Shown here: positions 35,441-62,639 of the stretch, one piece after another
Layout of the letters: each line of letters begins with the position of its first letter
How positions within the stretch are numbered: position 1 is the stretch's first letter
Source of the DNA: Fibrobacterota bacterium
GTDB lineage: Bacteria; Fibrobacterota; Fibrobacteria; UBA11236
NCBI GenBank assembly: GCA_023249635.1
Contig: JAHFCH010000011.1
Location: forward strand, 671 to 64,670
DNA: 64,000 bases
Direction of reading: 5' to 3'
Program-made: the position numbers and the translations under genes
The notes under the pieces: generated by a model
Database searches by the model: none
Told to the model about the DNA's origin: nothing
The model's input: only the letters and a program-made list of their open reading frames with translations

Positions 35441-35469
35441 GCGGAACCTCCGGGGATTTGTCCGGGGAA

Positions 35470-35545
35470 AGGTTTAAGGTTTAAGGTGGGTGGGTCCCGT
35501 AGGCCCGGTCCAATTCAACCCCCTTAAACCTTAGACCTTAACCTA
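35470..35545. repeat. Palindromic element, GGTTTAA-heptad family, copy 1
   Basis: AGGTTTAAGGTTTAAGGTGGG ..30 nt.. CCCTTAAACCTTAGACCTTAACC; long imperfect hairpin between convergent polyprenyl synthase (+) and mltG (-); a near-identical family member sits at 54594-54681. Confidence 0.7.
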
Positions 35546-54593: not shown

Positions 54594-54681
54594 GGGTTTA
54601 AGGTCTAAGGTTTAAGGTGGGGGAATTCAACGCCGTGAACATTCCCCTTAAACCTTTAACCTTAAACCTTAAACCTTCTTC
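54594..54681. repeat. Palindromic element, GGTTTAA-heptad family, copy 2
   Basis: GGTTTAAGGTCTAAGGTTTAAGGTGGGGG - 20 nt - CCCCTTAAACCTTTAACCTTAAACCTTAAACC; upstream of exbB and of the divergent gene starting 54817. Confidence 0.7.
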
Positions 54682-55368: not shown

Positions 55369-56364
55369 TTACCAACCTTGCTTGCGTATGCTCGTCTCGC
55401 CAATCAATTCGCGCATCCCTTTCTTCAGCTCTTTTAAGCCGTCGCCCGTGAGGGCGGAGGTGCGTAGAATGGGGCAGCCTTCCTTCTTGAAGCGCTTGTC
55501 GATCTTGAACTCGCCCAAGTCGCATTTGTTCATGGCGATCAGCTTCGGCTTCTGCAGCAATAGGGGATGGAACTTCTCCATCTCGGCGCGTAACACCTTG
55601 TATTGGCCGTACGGATCCTCGCCGCTCGCGTCAATGATATAGGCCAGGCAGAAGCTCCGCTCGATGTGGCGCAGGAACCGGTGGCCCAGGCCTTTGCCTT
55701 CGGCAGCGCCTTCGATGAGACCGGGGATGTCCACCAGTACGAAGCTTTGCCCGGGCGCGACTTCGACCAGGCCCAGGATGGGCTTCAGAGTGGTGAAAGG
55801 ATAATCGGCGACCTTGGGCGTGGCCGCGGAAAGCTTGCGGATGAGCGAGCTTTTTCCCGCGTTGGGGAAGCCCACCAGGCCGCAGTCCGCCACCAGCTTA
55901 AGCTCGAGCAGCAGTTTGCGCGATTCACCGGGATCGCCCGGGGTGGATTGCCGCGGCGCGCGATTGGTGCTGCTTTTGAAGGCGGCATTGCCGACTCCGC
56001 CACGGCCGCCTTGCGCCACGGTGTAGCGTTGGCCGGCCTCTTTCAGGTCGGACAGCAGTTCTCCCGTGGCGAGATCCTTCACCAGCGTTCCCACCGGAAC
56101 CGTAATCTCAATGTCCTTACCATTACGGCCGGTACACAGAGAGGGTTCTCCCGGACCGCCCGCATCGGCGCGGAATATGCGTTTGTTCCCGATATCGTAA
56201 AGGGTATGTATTTCGGTGGTGGCGACCACCACGACATGGCCTCCCCGGCCGCCGTTTCCGCCGCTGGGTCCCCCGAGGGGAACGAATTTTTCCCGACGGA
56301 AGCTGACCATGCCTTTTCCGCCGTGGCCCGCGTGAACTTCCAGCTTGGATTCATCAATGAACAT
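55369..56364 (-). CDS. obg: GTPase Obg/CgtA
   Basis: Obg fold N-terminus (MFIDESKLEVHAGHGGKGMVSFRREKFVPLGGPSGGNGGRGG), G1 GFPNAGKSS, G3 DIPG, G4 NKCD. Confidence 0.85.
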   Translation of the reverse strand: MFIDESKLEVHAGHGGKGMVSFRREKFVPLGGPSGGNGGRGGHVVVVATTEIHTLYDIGNKRIFRADAGGPGEPSLCTGRNGKDIEITVPVGTLVKDLATGELLSDLKEAGQRYTVAQGGRGGVGNAAFKSSTNRAPRQSTPGDPGESRKLLLELKLVADCGLVGFPNAGKSSLIRKLSAATPKVADYPFTTLKPILGLVEVAPGQSFVLVDIPGLIEGAAEGKGLGHRFLRHIERSFCLAYIIDASGEDPYGQYKVLRAEMEKFHPLLLQKPKLIAMNKCDLGEFKIDKRFKKEGCPILRTSALTGDGLKELKKGMRELIGETSIRKQGW

Positions 56365-56844
56365 GCGCGTAAATGTACTAAACGCCGTATTCGCAAAGCG
56401 TATGCCACCCGCTCCCCAAGCCCGGTTCCGCGGGGCTTACGGGGAGGGGTTGTGGGAATCGCGTAGTGTAGCCCAGGGAGGCGGAAAGGCAGCGCGCCGC
56501 AGGGTTTGTGTTTTTTACGGCGTAAGAGCGGGGGTCAGTTACGTCGATGGCCTTCTAGGCCAAGCAGGCATGCGCCATGATTCCGTAACCACACGTCCAT
56601 CGTATCCTTTCCATCCCGTCGGAACCGCGGACTGAGTCATCAGTCACTGGTTCCATCCGTGCAAGCGATTGACAATTTCCGCCGCACGGGCGAGGCGCGG
56701 ATCCACCCTTCCACGCACTGAGTGTGCGCGTTATTCGCGTCTCCAGGATCTTGAGAGGTTTGATACCCGTTGTTAACTTGATCGCATTCATGGCGCCCGG
56801 ACGCATTCCGGCAGGGAACACACCAAAATAGGGAGTTGCCAAGA

Positions 56845-57096
56845 ATGTCCAAGAAAAGATTCGTTACGACCGGTGAGATAGCGAAGATCTGCGAAGTCAG
56901 CCCCAAGACGGTGATCGCATGGATCGAGCGCAAACAACTGCGCTCCTTCCGCATCGGCCGGGGTCCCCGCAAGGTTACCCTCGCTGATCTGTATGACTTC
57001 CTCGGTTCGAGGAACTTCCCGATCGCTTCGCTGGAAGAACTGACGCGCATGCTCGAAGAACAGGCTAACCGCGAAGAGCTGGTTCCCGCGGTCTGA
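56845..57096 (+). CDS. Excisionase-family helix-turn-helix DNA-binding protein
   Basis: GGGAG RBS 9 nt upstream; MSKKRFVTTGEIAKICEVSPKTVIAWIERKQLRSFRIGRGPRKV matches the excisionase/MerR-like HTH pattern. Confidence 0.6.
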   Translation: MSKKRFVTTGEIAKICEVSPKTVIAWIERKQLRSFRIGRGPRKVTLADLYDFLGSRNFPIASLEELTRMLEEQANREELVPAV

Positions 57097-57150: not shown

Positions 57151-58596
57151 CTAGCTCTTACGTGCCAACCCCGAGCCGCCTTTACGGTCCGCGCCTTCGC
57201 CGCCTAACCGCAGTTCCTTCCCGTTAATCCCCAGCTTCTTCATTTTGTTATGGAGTGCTGTGCGGGTTATTTCCATGACCTTTGCGGCTTCGGACACGCT
57301 CCAGCCGCAGTTTTGCAGGCGCGCGAGCACGAAATCCCTCTCGATTTTCCGTAGATGCCCCTTGAGGGTAGGGTATGTCTGCGTGTCCAGCGCTACCACC
57401 AAAGCTTGCCCGTTCGGCGCGGTTGCCGATTTGAGATAGGCCTCCACTTCGGACCGGCTGATCAGCGGGCCCTTGGCGAAGGAAATGCCGCGCTGAATGA
57501 TGTTCTCCAGCTCGCGGATATTCCCCGGAAAGGAATAGCCCGAAAGCAGTTCCATGGCGTCGTCGCCCAGGCCTACCTTGGCCGCGTGGCGCTTTTGGTG
57601 TTTGGCCAGGAAATGCCGTACCAGTTGCGGTACGTCCGCGATGCGCGCGCGCAAGGGCGGCAGCCCGATGGGTATGACATTGAGCCGGTAGTACAGGTCC
57701 TCGCGGAAATGTCCCGACTTGATGGCCTCTTCCAGGTTGCGGTTGGTGGCCGCGATCACGCGCACGTTCACGTGCCGCACCTTGTTCTCACCCACGCGGC
57801 GGAACTCGCCTTCCTGCAGGATGCGCAGCAGCTTGGTCTGGCTGCGTAAAGGGATATCGCCGATCTCGTCCAGGAAAATGGTGCCGTTATCCGCCACCTC
57901 GAACAAACCTTCGCGATCGCCGACCGCGCCCGAGAAGGCGCCCTTGGCATGGCCGAACAATTCGCTCTCGATCAGGCCTTCGGAGATGGCGCAGCAATTG
58001 ACGATCACGAAACCATGCGCGGCGGCGTTGGCTTCGGCGCTGTAGATGGCGCGCGCCACCAATTCCTTGCCCGTGCCGCTTTCCCCGCGGATGAGCACGT
58101 GGCCTTTGGAATGCCGGGCCTTATCGATGAGCCGGAACACCTCCTGCATCGGCTCCGACGCGCCGATGATGTTCTGCGCGGCGTAGCCCTCGGCGCCCAG
58201 CTTGGCCAGGGGTCCGGTCTTGGCGCGCGTGCTCTTCTCGAAGGTCTTCCCGAGCGCCGCGTGCAACTGATCGGGATTGACCGGCTTGAGTAGGTAGTCG
58301 TCCGCGCCGATGGTTTGGGCCTTGCGGGCCACGTCGTAGGAGCCATGCGCGGTGAGGATGAAGACGGGCAGATCGGGCTGCAGTTGCTTGACCCGGCGGA
58401 CAAGCGCGAAGCCGTCGATGCCGGGCATCACCAGGTCGGTGATGATAAGGCTGAATTTGCGGCGCCCCAATTGCTCCAGGGCCTCTTCGCCATTCTGGGC
58501 CAGATGCACGTCGTAGCCGGCCGCCGTGAGGATATCCTTCAGGTAGAAGGCGGTGATCTTCTCGTCGTCGACGATGAGGATGGAGAGGTTATCCAT
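57151..58596 (-). CDS. Sigma-54-dependent response regulator (NtrC/Fis family enhancer-binding protein)
   Basis: Receiver (DDEKI.., D in IITDLVMPGIDG), AAA+ sigma-54 interaction domain (GESGTGKE, GAFSGA), C-terminal Fis-type HTH. Confidence 0.85.
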   Translation of the reverse strand: MDNLSILIVDDEKITAFYLKDILTAAGYDVHLAQNGEEALEQLGRRKFSLIITDLVMPGIDGFALVRRVKQLQPDLPVFILTAHGSYDVARKAQTIGADDYLLKPVNPDQLHAALGKTFEKSTRAKTGPLAKLGAEGYAAQNIIGASEPMQEVFRLIDKARHSKGHVLIRGESGTGKELVARAIYSAEANAAAHGFVIVNCCAISEGLIESELFGHAKGAFSGAVGDREGLFEVADNGTIFLDEIGDIPLRSQTKLLRILQEGEFRRVGENKVRHVNVRVIAATNRNLEEAIKSGHFREDLYYRLNVIPIGLPPLRARIADVPQLVRHFLAKHQKRHAAKVGLGDDAMELLSGYSFPGNIRELENIIQRGISFAKGPLISRSEVEAYLKSATAPNGQALVVALDTQTYPTLKGHLRKIERDFVLARLQNCGWSVSEAAKVMEITRTALHNKMKKLGINGKELRLGGEGADRKGGSGLARKS

Positions 58597-60856
58597 GGGA
58601 TTGCCAGCTCTTCACCAACTCGGCGTAAATCTTCGGGTAGGTATTCAGCAGGTCCTTTTCGAAAGCCGCCATTCCCGTGCGCGGCTTGATGGTAAGCCGC
58701 GTCCCGTTGGGCAGGGCCACCTGGCGATTGAGGTTCTCACCGAACTTGCGCAGGATGGCGGGCACGGTCTCCAGGGTGGTCATGGGCAGAACCACGAGGA
58801 AACGATTGAAGGCCAGGTAGCCCACGAAATCGGACTCGCGCAGGAAGCGCCGCATGTCGCCGATGAGCACGTTCTGCAGGCCGCGCAGGGCATCGCCATG
58901 GGTATCGAAACCGGCCTTGTCCTCGGGCAGGCCTTGGAACGAGACCAGCAGGGCGCTGAAGGGAAGCTGGTAGCGCAGGGCCCGGCTGATTTCCGATTTG
59001 ATGAAGAAGTCGAGCACCGCTTTTACGTACACGCCTGCGGGTAATTCCTTGGAGGCGGCCTTTTCGCGGCGGGCCAGCATTTCCTGGCGCACTTTCTGCA
59101 TTACCTGGCTGCCGGCCTCTTTCGCGAGAGACTCCGGATCGAGACCTTCCCGGGCCCGTCCCAGGGTCTCGTCCATTTCCTTCTCGTCGCTGAACATCTC
59201 CAGCAGGAATTGGATCTTTTCCGCCTCGCTTACGCCTGTGTCCCGCATTTGCGCCATGGCGGCGCGTCCCTTGAGGTCGGTCACGGAACGTTGCATGCGC
59301 AGGCGGAGCTTCTGCTGGCCCATGGCCCGCAATTCCTCGGGCATGCCCTTATCCTGCAGCTTCTGGTTTACCTCCGCTTCCATCTGGTGCAACATGGTGC
59401 TCAGCTTGGCCGCTTCCCTGGGATTGGCGTCGATGCGCTCGCCCGCGGCCTCGCCGGCCTTCTCCACGAAATCGGCCAGGGAATTGATCATGTCCTCGGC
59501 CGAGCCCTCGCGATTCGACTTGCGGGCCTCGCTGGCGAGCACGATCAATTGGGCCGCTTGGCGCGGGTTCTCTTGCAATTCGCGCAGCAGCTCTTCCTGG
59601 CTTATGCCCAGGCTTTGCCCGGCCTGCAAGAACTCCTGATAGCTCTGGTCGGTGCCCAGCAGGGTATTCAGTTCGGCGAGCAGGTTGAAGAATTCGATCA
59701 AGGGCACGCCCTGCTTCAGCAACTCGGCCCGGAACAGGTTTAGCACCCGCTGCAGATGGGCGCGATCGGGCACGATGCGCTGCACCACCTGGGCCATACG
59801 CTTGGGATTGCCCTTGCACTTGCGGTACTCCTCCATCACCAGTTGCGCCGCCGTCTGGGTGAAGATATCGTCGGCGGCTTCGGCGAGGCGGCCGGCTTCG
59901 GCTACCTTGGCGGGATCGGGACGCGTCAGGGTGGGCAATCCCGATTCGGTGAGCTTGCCCGCGTTACCGCCTCCGCCCAGGTGCTGGGCAAGTCCCTGCT
60001 GGGCCTTCACGGCTTTCAGCAATTCGGATCGCATGCTGTACATGCCGGCCAGCAAATCCTCGATGGGCACATTGCCGGTGCCCGCTTCGGCGCGGAAGGC
60101 GCCCACCACGTTCAACAGGCTTTGCTTCAGGGACTGGGCCTCTTGCCCGGGGTTGGCCACCGTGTTCTTGAGGATGGCGTCCGGCAGGGCGGAAGGGCTT
60201 TCCAGCACCTTGAGCAGGCTCAGGTTGGCGTTCATTTCCTGCGCGGTGAGATGCCCCAATACCACGCGCATGGCCGCGTCATCAAAGGCGCTGTTGGCGC
60301 GGCGCAGTTCCCCGGAAAAAGTGCCTCCTGGGCCCGGGCCTCCGCCATCGGGCGAACCAGTTGGCCTGGGGCCGCCCGCCGGGTGGCTTCCACCTGCCGT
60401 GACGACTTCGTCGCCGGACTTTACCGTCTGCAGGCTTACGTTGTTCACGTTGAAACAGGTGATGCTCTGATTGGTCAGGTAAGCCAGGAAGCGCGCGGGA
60501 TCGGCATGGGTCATGCTGCAGGCGTCCAGAAAGCGGGCGAGCGCGCCCATGGAAACGGGCTGCGAGAAGGTGATGGACTCGATCCCGAAGCGGCGCAGGT
60601 GGTCGGCGATCTTCCGGTTGTTGGGCGCATACACCAGATCGACATGGCCGATGTAATACCCGAATTCCTGGAAGAGGATCGAAAGGGAAGCATCCTGGCC
60701 CAGGCATTTCGCGAAGGCTTCGTAAACGCGGGGAATGGTCTCTTGCGCGACGGGATGATCGAAAGCGTAGGCGACGGTGCGCTGGTAAAACAGATTTAGC
60801 AGCCGAACCAGGTTCTCGGCGTCGATACGGGAAAAGGCCTTGGTGTCCTGGTTCAT
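58589..60856 (-). CDS. Large signalling protein with C-terminal degenerate GGDEF domain (GGDEF replaced by AFNRF; I-site RESD retained)
   Basis: C-terminal approx 150 aa align to the diguanylate cyclase fold (..LLVSF..THGDALRGLQNVL..RESDFVGYLAFNRFLVVLP..); N-terminal 600 aa helical, no family recognised; 8-nt overlap with the sigma-54 regulator gene. Confidence 0.55.
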   Translation of the reverse strand: MNQDTKAFSRIDAENLVRLLNLFYQRTVAYAFDHPVAQETIPRVYEAFAKCLGQDASLSILFQEFGYYIGHVDLVYAPNNRKIADHLRRFGIESITFSQPVSMGALARFLDACSMTHADPARFLAYLTNQSITCFNVNNVSLQTVKSGDEVVTAGGSHPAGGPRPTGSPDGGGPGPGGTFSGELRRANSAFDDAAMRVVLGHLTAQEMNANLSLLKVLESPSALPDAILKNTVANPGQEAQSLKQSLLNVVGAFRAEAGTGNVPIEDLLAGMYSMRSELLKAVKAQQGLAQHLGGGGNAGKLTESGLPTLTRPDPAKVAEAGRLAEAADDIFTQTAAQLVMEEYRKCKGNPKRMAQVVQRIVPDRAHLQRVLNLFRAELLKQGVPLIEFFNLLAELNTLLGTDQSYQEFLQAGQSLGISQEELLRELQENPRQAAQLIVLASEARKSNREGSAEDMINSLADFVEKAGEAAGERIDANPREAAKLSTMLHQMEAEVNQKLQDKGMPEELRAMGQQKLRLRMQRSVTDLKGRAAMAQMRDTGVSEAEKIQFLLEMFSDEKEMDETLGRAREGLDPESLAKEAGSQVMQKVRQEMLARREKAASKELPAGVYVKAVLDFFIKSEISRALRYQLPFSALLVSFQGLPEDKAGFDTHGDALRGLQNVLIGDMRRFLRESDFVGYLAFNRFLVVLPMTTLETVPAILRKFGENLNRQVALPNGTRLTIKPRTGMAAFEKDLLNTYPKIYAELVKSWQSHG

Positions 60857-60945
60857 GGGATTCCGATATTTTAGCCTTTTATCGGTGAAGCTGCCACCTG
60901 ACGGGCACTTAGCTAGGGACGGGGCCCCCGGGGCAAATGCTATAA

Positions 60946-61878
60946 TTGGCCGCGATGGCCATCCCCGCCGCTTTACCCGATTTGACCGGCCAAACCCTGG
61001 GCACGGTTACCCTGCTCCAGAAGATCGGCGAAGGCAGCATGGGCGTGGTATACCGGGGTTTCCAGAACACCTTGAGCCGTCCCGTGGCGGTAAAGGTGGT
61101 CTTCCGCAACCGCCTCAACAAGCTTTTCACCTCGGAACGCTTCCGCCAAGAAGCCGAGGTGGTCGCCAACCTGTTGCATTCCAACATCGTGACCATTTTC
61201 GAATTCGGCGAGCAGCCCGACTTCATGTACTTCATCATGCAGTTGGTGGAGGGAGTCAACCTTTCGGCCTGGCTCAAGCAAAAGAAAAAGCACCCTTTGC
61301 CCCGCAAGCGCGTGCCCTCCATGGACGAATTGCTGCGGCTGGCGGAGCAGGTCCTTGAGGTACTGGCTTTCGCCCATGCCGAAGGCGTCATCCACCGGGA
61401 CATCAAGCCCGAGAACCTGCTCTGGATCGAAAAGAGCAGGAAGGTCTTGGTGGCCGATTTCGGCCTCGCGGCGGTGTACCATACCGTCTACGACGAAGAG
61501 AAGGCGTTTATCCTGGGGTCCCCGCTATACGTCTCGCCGGAGCAGGCCCGCGGGGAAACCGTGGACGGCCGGGCCGATCTCTTCTCCTTCGGCTGCGTGC
61601 TGTTGGAAATGACCCTGGGTTTCCTGCCCGTAAAGGTGGAGCGCCCGGAACGCATTTTCCAGACCCGGGCCAAGGAAAGCCCCGATATGTTCACCGGCAT
61701 GGCCCATGACCATAGCCCCGCCGTTCCCCGTCCCTGGAGCGATTTCGTGGCCAAGGCGTTGGTGGCGAAGCGGGACCAGCGGTATGCGGGAGCAGAGCAG
61801 ATGCTGACGGCACTGCGGAATATCGCGCCTGGGCTGCGGGCCGGCGACAAGGAGGATACGGGACAAGCTACGGCATAA
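60946..61878 (+). CDS. Hanks-type serine/threonine protein kinase (kinase domain only)
   Basis: IGEGSMGVVY Gly loop, VAVKVV Lys, HRDIKPENLL catalytic loop, DFGLA, SPE motif (YVSPEQ). Confidence 0.8.
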   Translation: MAAMAIPAALPDLTGQTLGTVTLLQKIGEGSMGVVYRGFQNTLSRPVAVKVVFRNRLNKLFTSERFRQEAEVVANLLHSNIVTIFEFGEQPDFMYFIMQLVEGVNLSAWLKQKKKHPLPRKRVPSMDELLRLAEQVLEVLAFAHAEGVIHRDIKPENLLWIEKSRKVLVADFGLAAVYHTVYDEEKAFILGSPLYVSPEQARGETVDGRADLFSFGCVLLEMTLGFLPVKVERPERIFQTRAKESPDMFTGMAHDHSPAVPRPWSDFVAKALVAKRDQRYAGAEQMLTALRNIAPGLRAGDKEDTGQATA

Positions 61879-62117: not shown

Positions 62118-62639
62118 ATGACCCAAGAGGCCACCGGCGCCGGCAAAGACGATATGCTCGAAAGCATGCTCAAAGGCCTTCGCGAGGATGAAATCGGGGT
62201 GCTGGATCGGTTTACCGACTACCAGAAATCCACCGCTCCCTTTTTCGAAAAGGTCGAAGTCGCCCACGAGTTCCTGGATCTGCTCACCTTCAAGATCAAG
62301 GAGAGCAAGTCGAAGATGAACAAGGAACTGCTCGCGCAGTTCTCCCTGGCCTTCCTCCGCCAGACCGTCCGCACCTACGGCTACAATCCCAAGTTCGTCG
62401 CCACCCAGGCCAAGGCCCTCATCACCTATTACCAGAACCAGAAGAACCTGGAGAGGGCCATCGAGGTTTGCGAATTCCTGATCCTACAGGGCATCACCGA
62501 TGACGATGCCAAGGGATTCCACGTCCGTCTCGACGAGTTGTACCGCCTCAAGCGGAAGATCGAGGAAAAGGGCGGGGATATTTCGGGGATCAGCTTTCCG
62601 ACCATGGATGATGATGAGTCGGATGATTCTGAAGAGTGA
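62118..62639 (+). CDS. Hypothetical protein with acidic C-terminal tail
   Basis: CAGGGGA RBS; 173 aa; ends DDDESDDSEE; followed by a perfect 7-bp hairpin GCAGAACtaagagtGTTCTGC. Confidence 0.45.
   Translation: MTQEATGAGKDDMLESMLKGLREDEIGVLDRFTDYQKSTAPFFEKVEVAHEFLDLLTFKIKESKSKMNKELLAQFSLAFLRQTVRTYGYNPKFVATQAKALITYYQNQKNLERAIEVCEFLILQGITDDDAKGFHVRLDELYRLKRKIEEKGGDISGISFPTMDDDESDDSEE

Follow-up and report, generated by a model that had tools for sequence, protein, structure and literature searches.

What does a large protein with a degenerate GGDEF domain do when its gene lies between a divergent Ser/Thr kinase gene and a sigma-54 activator gene, close to a cluster of polysaccharide genes? The question is raised by a 64,000-nt stretch of a Fibrobacterota genome (assembly GCA_023249635.1, contig JAHFCH010000011.1, positions 671 to 64,670; hereafter the window), in which a 755-aa open reading frame (ORF), here called BIG, is flanked by a Hanks-type kinase gene and a gene for a sigma-54 enhancer-binding protein (EBP). 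A preliminary description had proposed that BIG senses cyclic di-GMP (c-di-GMP) and, together with the kinase, feeds a co-transcribed EBP, which in turn activates the nearby exbBD-tonB-wza-wzc-wzx-glycosyltransferase cluster. The analysis reported here assigns to BIG, with very high confidence, a dead GGDEF fold with a conserved inhibitory site (I-site) and an obligate pairing with the kinase. We give about an even chance to the reading that BIG is a c-di-GMP-sensing partner of the kinase rather than a regulator that switches the polysaccharide genes close by.

Fold, active site and I-site of BIG

BIG belongs to an unnamed family of kinase-associated proteins of ~720 aa with a degenerate GGDEF domain. 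Its parts in the window are as follows.

58589..60856, minus strand: BIG ORF, 755 aa
60443..60829, minus strand: N-terminal alpha/beta domain, residues 10-138 (AlphaFold2; predicted local distance difference test (pLDDT) 87, predicted template modelling score (pTM) 0.81)
60290..60436, minus strand: Gly/Pro/Ser-rich disordered linker, residues 141-189 (pLDDT ~30; gaps in alignments)
59057..60289, minus strand: all-helical region, residues 190-600 (AlphaFold2 secondary structure and conservation)
58598..59032, minus strand: degenerate GGDEF domain, residues 609-753 (Foldseek, profile and HHalign matches)
58829..58840, minus strand: RESD (R673-D676), RxxD of the I-site (translation; aligned with the RxxD of DgcR, 3ign and PleD)
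58799..58813, minus strand: AFNRF (682-686) at the position of GG(D/E)EF (translation and alignments)
58745..58747, minus strand: K704, equivalent to PleD R390, the third primary I-site residue (HHalign register)

No Pfam model matched BIG at E<=1, and the GGDEF models of NCBIfam aligned with residues 587-735 at sub-threshold scores throughout (SiaD 5e-5; TIGR00254 15.4 bits, cut-off 37.4). The fold was recognized from structure and from profile comparison. An AlphaFold2 model built from 25 homologues has a pLDDT of ~80-88 in the C-terminal domain, and at least 35 top Foldseek matches of this domain in the PDB are exclusively GGDEF domains, including those of DosC, a T. maritima protein, PleD, DgcR and FimX (E down to 3.6e-5, TM-score 0.6-0.7, root-mean-square deviation 2.6-4 A over ~140 residues). 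A profile of the close clade matched solved GGDEF domains weakly (E ~0.015), and one of distant members matched 3ign at 1e-9, 6d9m at 2e-8, SiaD at 8e-8 and DosC at 3e-7. HHalign aligned BIG with the cyclase domain of PleD at an E-value of 4.6e-6; the numbering of the PleD sequence used matches that of the published residues, and the tool-derived alignments with 6zxm and 3ign give the same register. The motif register also agrees across the hidden Markov model (HMM) and HHalign alignments of BIG with DgcR, 3ign and PleD. Translation of 58745-58840 on the minus strand gives RESDFVGYLAFNRFLVVLPMTTLETVPAILRK, which contains RESD, the five-residue spacer FVGYL and AFNRF, and the aligned residues are as follows.

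BIG R673: PleD R359, I-site
BIG D676: PleD D362, I-site
BIG K704: PleD R390, I-site, third residue
BIG AFNRF 682-686: PleD GGEEF 368-372, catalytic motif
BIG S639: PleD D327, Mg2+ binding in PleD
BIG E645: PleD N335, guanine contact in PleD
BIG G654: PleD D344, guanine contact in PleD

The roles of PleD D327, E370, N335 and D344 have been described (bioRxiv 10.1101/2025.08.22.671821). With substitutions at the metal-binding Asp, at the two guanine contacts and throughout the catalytic motif, BIG cannot be a cyclase: its C-terminal domain has the GGDEF fold and retains the primary I-site residues but is unable to make c-di-GMP. Compared with the PF00990 and TIGR00254 families, it shares the fold, scores below the curated HMM threshold, and lacks the catalytic motif and the metal- and guanine-binding residues. 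Some relatives barely pass the GGDEF threshold (P0065, 26.7 vs 23.8; P0006, with a precomputed PF00990 match). The preliminary description had recognized a GGDEF fold with AFNRF in place of the motif and RESD as an I-site five residues upstream, and both survive the structural and profile comparisons, R673, D676 and K704 aligning with R359, D362 and R390 of PleD. The HMMER comparison with GGDEF models that it had proposed gave sub-threshold matches only, the fold being assigned by structure and HHalign instead. A further ligand, (p)ppGpp, was suggested by PleD-pppGpp structures among the fold matches and was ruled out; it is unlikely because it binds active-site residues that BIG lacks (bioRxiv 10.1101/2025.08.22.671821).

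Close homologues of BIG number 60, every one from metagenome-assembled genomes (MAGs) of Fibrobacteria. A profile search of 1.84 billion representatives extended the family to 1,325 proteins (clusters at 50% identity) at E<=1e-3, 153 of them at E<=1e-30, and the majority of the best 150 matches are full-length (~700-750 aa). Named members come from Deltaproteobacteria/Thermodesulfobacteriota MAGs, one Wenzhouxiangellaceae (Gammaproteobacteria) MAG and one Chitinivibrionales MAG and are annotated as 'hypothetical' or 'GGDEF domain-containing'; all members seen are of MAG or metagenome origin. Among 118 full-length representatives, two subfamilies account for ~40 each and the window's own clade for three. 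In distant members, Pfam scores for GGDEF do no better than attain the threshold, and the first 600 residues have no match.

Within these 118 representatives, R673 is present in 113, D676 in 115 and the following G679 in 112, and 108 carry Arg at position 704 as against 5 with Lys, which is confined to the window's clade. The five GGDEF-motif positions vary across the family in both sequence and length, and position 639, that of the metal-binding Asp, is Ser/Thr. The I-site triad is thus the most conserved feature of the C-terminal domain, whereas the catalytic loop has drifted freely. A functional I-site would be expected to leave such a pattern, which does not, however, prove binding. Residues invariant over 17-39% identity are H34 and N138 in the N-terminal domain (Y30, P35, N79 and S94 being almost so), E343, G417, P431, A441 and E443 in the helical region ('LASEIR' motif), and L392, R628, Y629, R673, D676 and G679.

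The rest of BIG resembles no described family in Pfam, NCBIfam or the PDB, as the preliminary description had noted for the N-terminal 600 aa. Foldseek found nothing significant in the PDB for the N-terminal domain (best E 0.38, TM-score <0.3), which also has no consistent Pfam match; the helical region matched only designed helical repeats; and the linker (141-189) is variable in both length and sequence in the family alignments. The model thus portrays BIG as a probable cytoplasmic signalling protein, in which a novel N-terminal alpha/beta domain is followed by ~400 aa of helices and then by the GGDEF domain. Matches of 1,020-1,235 aa, such as P0182, were set aside as an out-group with only the helical region in common. 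The gene for P0182 (L036, 6001-9063) lies within a pilus cluster containing PilM, PilO, secretin and MshE (MshEN c-di-GMP-binding ATPase) genes, with no kinase gene nearby.

Pairing with a Hanks-type kinase and comparison with known receptors

Two genes on the other side of BIG are considered here.

60955..61878, plus strand: kinase-domain-only Hanks Ser/Thr kinase (Pkinase 6e-47), conserved partner of BIG
62118..62639, plus strand: 173-aa protein with an acidic tail, following the kinase gene throughout Fibrobacterota

The kinase retains the motifs of Hanks-type kinases (VAVK, HRDIKPEN, DFG and SPE(Q)). It is transcribed divergently from BIG in the window across a gap of 89-98 bp, in agreement with the ORFs and the ~90-bp gap given in the preliminary description. 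Gene callers favour the ATG at 60955 (307 aa) over the ORF start at 60946 (310 aa), and the TTG at the latter position is probably not the true start. Within 60937-60957 on the plus strand, an extended -10 box (TGcTATAAT) is followed after only ~10 nt by the ATG at 60955, a proximity that suggests a nearly leaderless mRNA.

The pairing was followed through the family. The Fibrobacterota comparison comprised 23 species genomes in two clades (A, 48-76% identity to the window; B, 37-38%), and among loci with enough upstream flank the kinase gene lies beside BIG in 13/13 of clade A and 6/7 of clade B, locus L028 having no kinase gene within 2.7 kb of BIG. Scanning metagenome contigs for one subfamily yielded 80 loci, in which the kinase gene is immediately upstream on the same strand in all 73 whose upstream flank is 247 nt or longer, and an FHA protein is encoded nearby in ~16 of these loci. 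The six distant full-length members that were looked up, drawn from four subfamilies, likewise all have a kinase-only Hanks gene (295-305 aa) directly upstream on the same strand, separated by 1-18 nt or overlapping by 4 nt, and many distant loci consist of the kinase and BIG genes alone. No Pkinase domain was found in the longer family members scanned for kinase-BIG fusions (P0068, P0082 and P0088). Partner kinases across phyla are 33-35% identical to the window kinase and share a KHPxPxxR insert and the motifs GSPLY(V/M)SPEQ and DGRAD, which places them in one co-inherited kinase subfamily. Because the kinase is constant beside BIG across lineages, the conserved unit is the kinase plus BIG; the partnership suggested in the preliminary description is therefore borne out, and extends across phyla. 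Most probably, BIG regulates, scaffolds or is phosphorylated by this kinase.

Orthologues of the 173-aa protein were detected by tblastn in both Fibrobacterota clades (35-88% identity), and comparison with Pfam, NCBIfam and the PDB gave no relative. This protein is probably a third component of the kinase-BIG module in Fibrobacterota.

Receptors with a degenerate GGDEF domain and a functional I-site are already known. With RxxD placed five residues before the GGDEF position (RESD-FVGYL-AFNRF), BIG shares the core of the I-site with the PelD/PopA/SgmT type; at the third I-site position its Lys704 may or may not stand in for Arg. By analogy it would function like the I-site-only receptors PelD, PopA, CdgA and especially SgmT, while belonging to none of these families. 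PelD of Pseudomonas aeruginosa also has a degenerate GGDEF domain lacking the catalytic motif and binds c-di-GMP through RxxD and a downstream Arg. PelD, however, is membrane-bound, contains a GAF domain and is a product of the pel operon, whereas BIG is predicted to be cytoplasmic (a soluble AlphaFold2 model, without transmembrane helices or GAF domain), has a different 600-aa N-terminal part and is encoded outside any polysaccharide operon, beside the EBP and the Hanks kinase with which it is paired; Foldseek matches between PelD structures and the BIG N-terminal domain were very weak and non-significant. In PopA of Caulobacter the GGDEF domain is catalytically inactive and functional ligand binding falls to its I-site, but PopA is a protease adaptor with two receiver domains and no kinase partner, and has only the GGDEF domain in common with BIG. 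Bdellovibrio CdgA reportedly has an inactive GGDEF domain in which the I-site likewise serves as the functional ligand site. The closest functional analogy is SgmT/DigR of Myxococcus xanthus, in which SgmT binds c-di-GMP via the I-site of its degenerate GGDEF domain and feeds a DNA-binding regulator of matrix genes; in SgmT, however, a histidine kinase is fused to the GGDEF domain, whereas the kinase of BIG is separate and of Hanks type, BIG itself having no histidine-kinase domain. Feedback-inhibited diguanylate cyclases (PleD, DgcR and 3ign from Marinobacter) share the fold and the aligned I-site triad with BIG but are active enzymes with GG(D/E)EF, the metal-binding Asp and the guanine-binding Asn/Asp, all of which BIG lacks. 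To our knowledge, no degenerate-GGDEF I-site receptor has been reported in constant partnership with a Hanks kinase, and a literature search on GGDEF or c-di-GMP combined with Ser/Thr kinases found no description of such a family.

Genes downstream of BIG and a sigma-54-type promoter upstream of obg

The following features lie on the other side of BIG.

57151..58596, minus strand: EBP, REC-AAA+-HTH sigma-54 enhancer-binding protein, 481 aa, a neighbour in clade A only
56392..56407, minus strand: sigma-54-type promoter TGGCATACGCTTTGCG, a candidate EBP target located 28 nt ahead of the obg ATG
55369..56364, minus strand: obg GTPase gene (GTP1_OBG and MMR_HSR1), downstream of the sigma-54 promoter

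The EBP has the NtrC-family architecture (Response_reg 7e-32, Sigma54_activat 7e-68, HTH_8 6e-8 in Pfam), an invariant GAFSGA loop and a receiver in which D54, T82 and K104 are all present; no NCBIfam equivalog reached its cut-off (NtrC 402 vs 559). In a relative with 48% identity (3.75-Mb chromosome; L001/L030, 12219-13640), the EBP receiver has Gln for Asp54 and lacks T82 and K104, so the activator could not be driven by a histidine kinase there.

The gene order of clade A is largely kept: metG, a DEAD helicase gene, map, the 173-aa gene and the kinase gene on one side, and BIG, EBP, obg, an SH3-like gene, exbB-exbD-exbD-tonB, wza, wzc and wzx on the other. EBP is present in 12 of the 13 clade-A loci with enough flank and missing in one genome (L020/L006), where obg directly follows BIG; obg comes after BIG or after BIG-EBP in every clade-A locus. 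In clade B, the kinase gene and the 173-aa orthologue persist, separated from BIG by a transglutaminase-core gene, and BIG is followed by a STAS gene (anti-sigma-antagonist-like) and a PfkB sugar kinase gene (L003, L023-L027, L032 and L033). The STAS start in L003 shares one nucleotide with the BIG stop codon. No REC-EBP, obg or EPS (exopolysaccharide) gene was found near BIG in the clade-B loci, and none of the distant BIG loci examined has EBP or EPS genes. Two of the six distant members have an FHA-domain gene directly downstream of BIG, and an FHA protein is the product of the next gene in some Desulfobacterota-type loci. That REC-EBP, STAS and FHA proteins occupy the same position after BIG suggests an output slot.

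Potential targets of the EBP were sought as sigma-54 promoters. A scan of the window for TGGCAC-N5-TTGCW with <=2 mismatches gave 20 sites vs 26 expected and thus no enrichment, and the stricter pattern TGG[CT]A[CT]N5[TC]TGC has exactly one match on either strand, the site upstream of obg. Consensus and weighted scans found no sigma-54 consensus upstream of exbB or of wza and the glycosyltransferase genes, and none in any intergenic region of 36.7-54.8 kb. Ten related loci (L011-L019 and L029) each have the obg element, mostly as the perfect form TGGCACACGCTTTGC, as their sole match; in all of them it precedes the obg start by 42-63 nt and its flanks have diverged. It is present exactly where a reversed HTH_17 gene separates EBP from obg, and absent where EBP abuts obg or is missing. 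The obg promoter is therefore the best local candidate for an EBP target, ahead of the polysaccharide genes; by its proximity only, the EBP might drive it, a proposal to which we give somewhat less than an even chance. Sigma-54-dependent expression of obg, an essential GTPase gene, would be unusual.

The HTH_17 gene (window 56836-57096, plus strand) encodes an 86-aa excisionase/MerR-like protein and is convergent with EBP and divergent from obg. Its product is 93-98% identical in most relatives, in which BIG is only 71-76% identical, and 75-87% identical in three that are more distant, a conservation well above that of the neighbouring genes; a ~70-nt block upstream is conserved as well. Where the HTH_17-obg intergenic region is long (L011-L016), a 17-nt block, GGGATGGAAAGGATACG, is conserved at ~56600-56620 (minus strand), and no conserved small ORF follows it. 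In the intergenic alignment, an EBP binding site could not be separated from the HTH_17 promoter block. Elsewhere, in a distant member (L009, 12319-14017; GCA_900174595.1), rplU-rpmA-obg lies ~2 kb downstream of kinase-BIG-FHA; this is a second, independent case of obg close to the module, and may be coincidental.

The model of the preliminary description, in which this module switches on the EPS genes, must be weighed against these results. The polysaccharide cluster occupies 36.7-54.4 kb (ExbB/ExbD/TonB, Wza, Wzc, Wzx and GT1/GT2/GT4/GT9 glycosyltransferases in Pfam) on the strand of the EBP, 2.7 kb downstream of it, and the BIG-EBP-obg-exbB-wza arrangement recurs in clade A. In addition, FleQ, VpsR and Nla24 are known c-di-GMP-responsive activators that control EPS genes, and they resemble the window EBP in being of sigma-54 type, near polysaccharide genes and in a c-di-GMP context; in these proteins, however, the regulator itself binds c-di-GMP, whereas the EPS genes of the window have no detected sigma-54 promoter. 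The model also drew on translational coupling of BIG and EBP: an 8-nt overlap (CAT GGA TAA over ATG GAT AAC) is indeed present, but it is particular to the window genome, the spacer in relatives being 40-260 nt. Adjacency to the EPS locus holds loosely, since three genes (HTH_17, obg and the SH3-like gene), two of them on the opposite strand, lie between EBP and the start of exbB. Housekeeping genes (metG, map and obg) are just as syntenic in clade A, so the BIG-EBP-EPS synteny is not specific; moreover, one clade-A genome has BIG, obg and the EPS genes without EBP, and EBP and EPS genes are a feature of one Fibrobacteria clade only, missing near BIG in the sister clade and the distant members examined. 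With no sigma-54-type promoter near the EPS genes, the idea of EPS control is refuted for canonical promoters by the test that the preliminary description had itself set. We consider the full chain from c-di-GMP to the EPS cluster very improbable, and control of the EPS genes by the EBP is largely excluded.

A palindrome of AAGGTTT heptads with 24-nt arms (RNA fold -44.8 kcal/mol, z -4.5) is present in two copies, at window 54595-54677 and 35469-35539, one at either end of the ~19-kb polysaccharide cluster: the first lies between the divergent exbB and SH3-like genes, the second a short way past yceG. Heptad pairs occur 10 times vs 0.5 expected, with none in 116 related loci, and the palindrome may be a genome-specific repetitive extragenic palindromic (REP)-like element.

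A possible c-di-GMP input to Ser/Thr phosphorylation

In the mechanism that we favour, BIG would bind c-di-GMP at its I-site and act with the dedicated kinase-domain-only Hanks kinase, whether by sensing for it or regulating it as a subunit, by scaffolding it or as one of its substrates. The pair would convert the c-di-GMP level into Ser/Thr phosphorylation, and the lineage-dependent gene after BIG (REC-sigma-54 activator, STAS or FHA) could be its output. Binding of c-di-GMP through R673, D676 and K704 seems somewhat probable from the alignments; that BIG and the kinase interact, and in which direction, we infer.

Several observations weigh against this mechanism, and some of them favour a rival in which BIG is a scaffold or substrate of the kinase that binds no c-di-GMP, its GGDEF-like domain being structural, serving dimerization or contacting another ligand or a protein through its R-x-x-D/R surface. 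Divergence keeps the domain of the window protein below the Pfam and TIGRFAM GGDEF thresholds; the third I-site residue is Lys in the window protein and its clade, vs Arg elsewhere in the family; and RxxD and the next Gly fall within a generally well-conserved stretch, so that part of their conservation could be structural. Kinase synteny, the strongest signal of all, establishes a functional link to the kinase and not its direction, many invariant residues lie in the other two thirds of BIG, and several degenerate GGDEF domains bind no c-di-GMP, such as those of LapD and CsrD. Against this rival, the c-di-GMP-contacting triad of PleD type survives over 17-39% identity while the catalytic loop drifts, even though the fold does not need it, as cyclases without feedback inhibition lose the triad freely, and (p)ppGpp is an unlikely substitute given the missing active-site residues. 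On balance, a role without c-di-GMP appears unlikely, though it is the main competitor of c-di-GMP sensing. Other points against our mechanism concern its output: the obg promoter tracks the inserted HTH_17 gene and not EBP, three genomes having EBP without the promoter, and the canonical, phosphorylatable EBP receiver points to an unlinked histidine kinase as input. EBP might thus lie beside BIG through inherited gene order only, with an unlinked histidine kinase driving it and obg or distant genes being regulated independently of BIG and its kinase. The intact D54, T82 and K104, the lack of EBP in one clade-A genome and in every other lineage, and the 40-260-nt spacing in relatives are consistent with this explanation, whereas the overlap of BIG and EBP in the window genome and the recurrence of a phospho-signalling protein after BIG in three independent contexts (REC-EBP, STAS and FHA) are not readily accommodated by it. 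We regard inherited order as a less likely account as well; yet the converse, that EBP is the output of the kinase-BIG pair in clade A, is itself tentative and on the doubtful side.

For annotation, the locus illustrates that regulation should not be read from a neighbourhood in which housekeeping genes are equally syntenic. In its most general and speculative form, which we consider rather unlikely as a whole, the c-di-GMP-sensing reading would make kinase-BIG a two-gene signalling unit that is widespread and has so far escaped notice. The I-site of a dead cyclase domain would bind c-di-GMP and thereby gate the stand-alone kinase allosterically, and the signal would pass to interchangeable partners (a sigma-54 activator, STAS or FHA protein); such a unit would be a direct bridge from c-di-GMP to eukaryote-like protein phosphorylation. 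If BIG does bind c-di-GMP, a function would be found for a conserved 600-aa region without a Pfam model, and the family, which spans ~1,300 clusters at 50% identity in Fibrobacterota, Desulfobacterota-type lineages and Gammaproteobacteria, would represent a new c-di-GMP output route, namely Ser/Thr phosphorylation.

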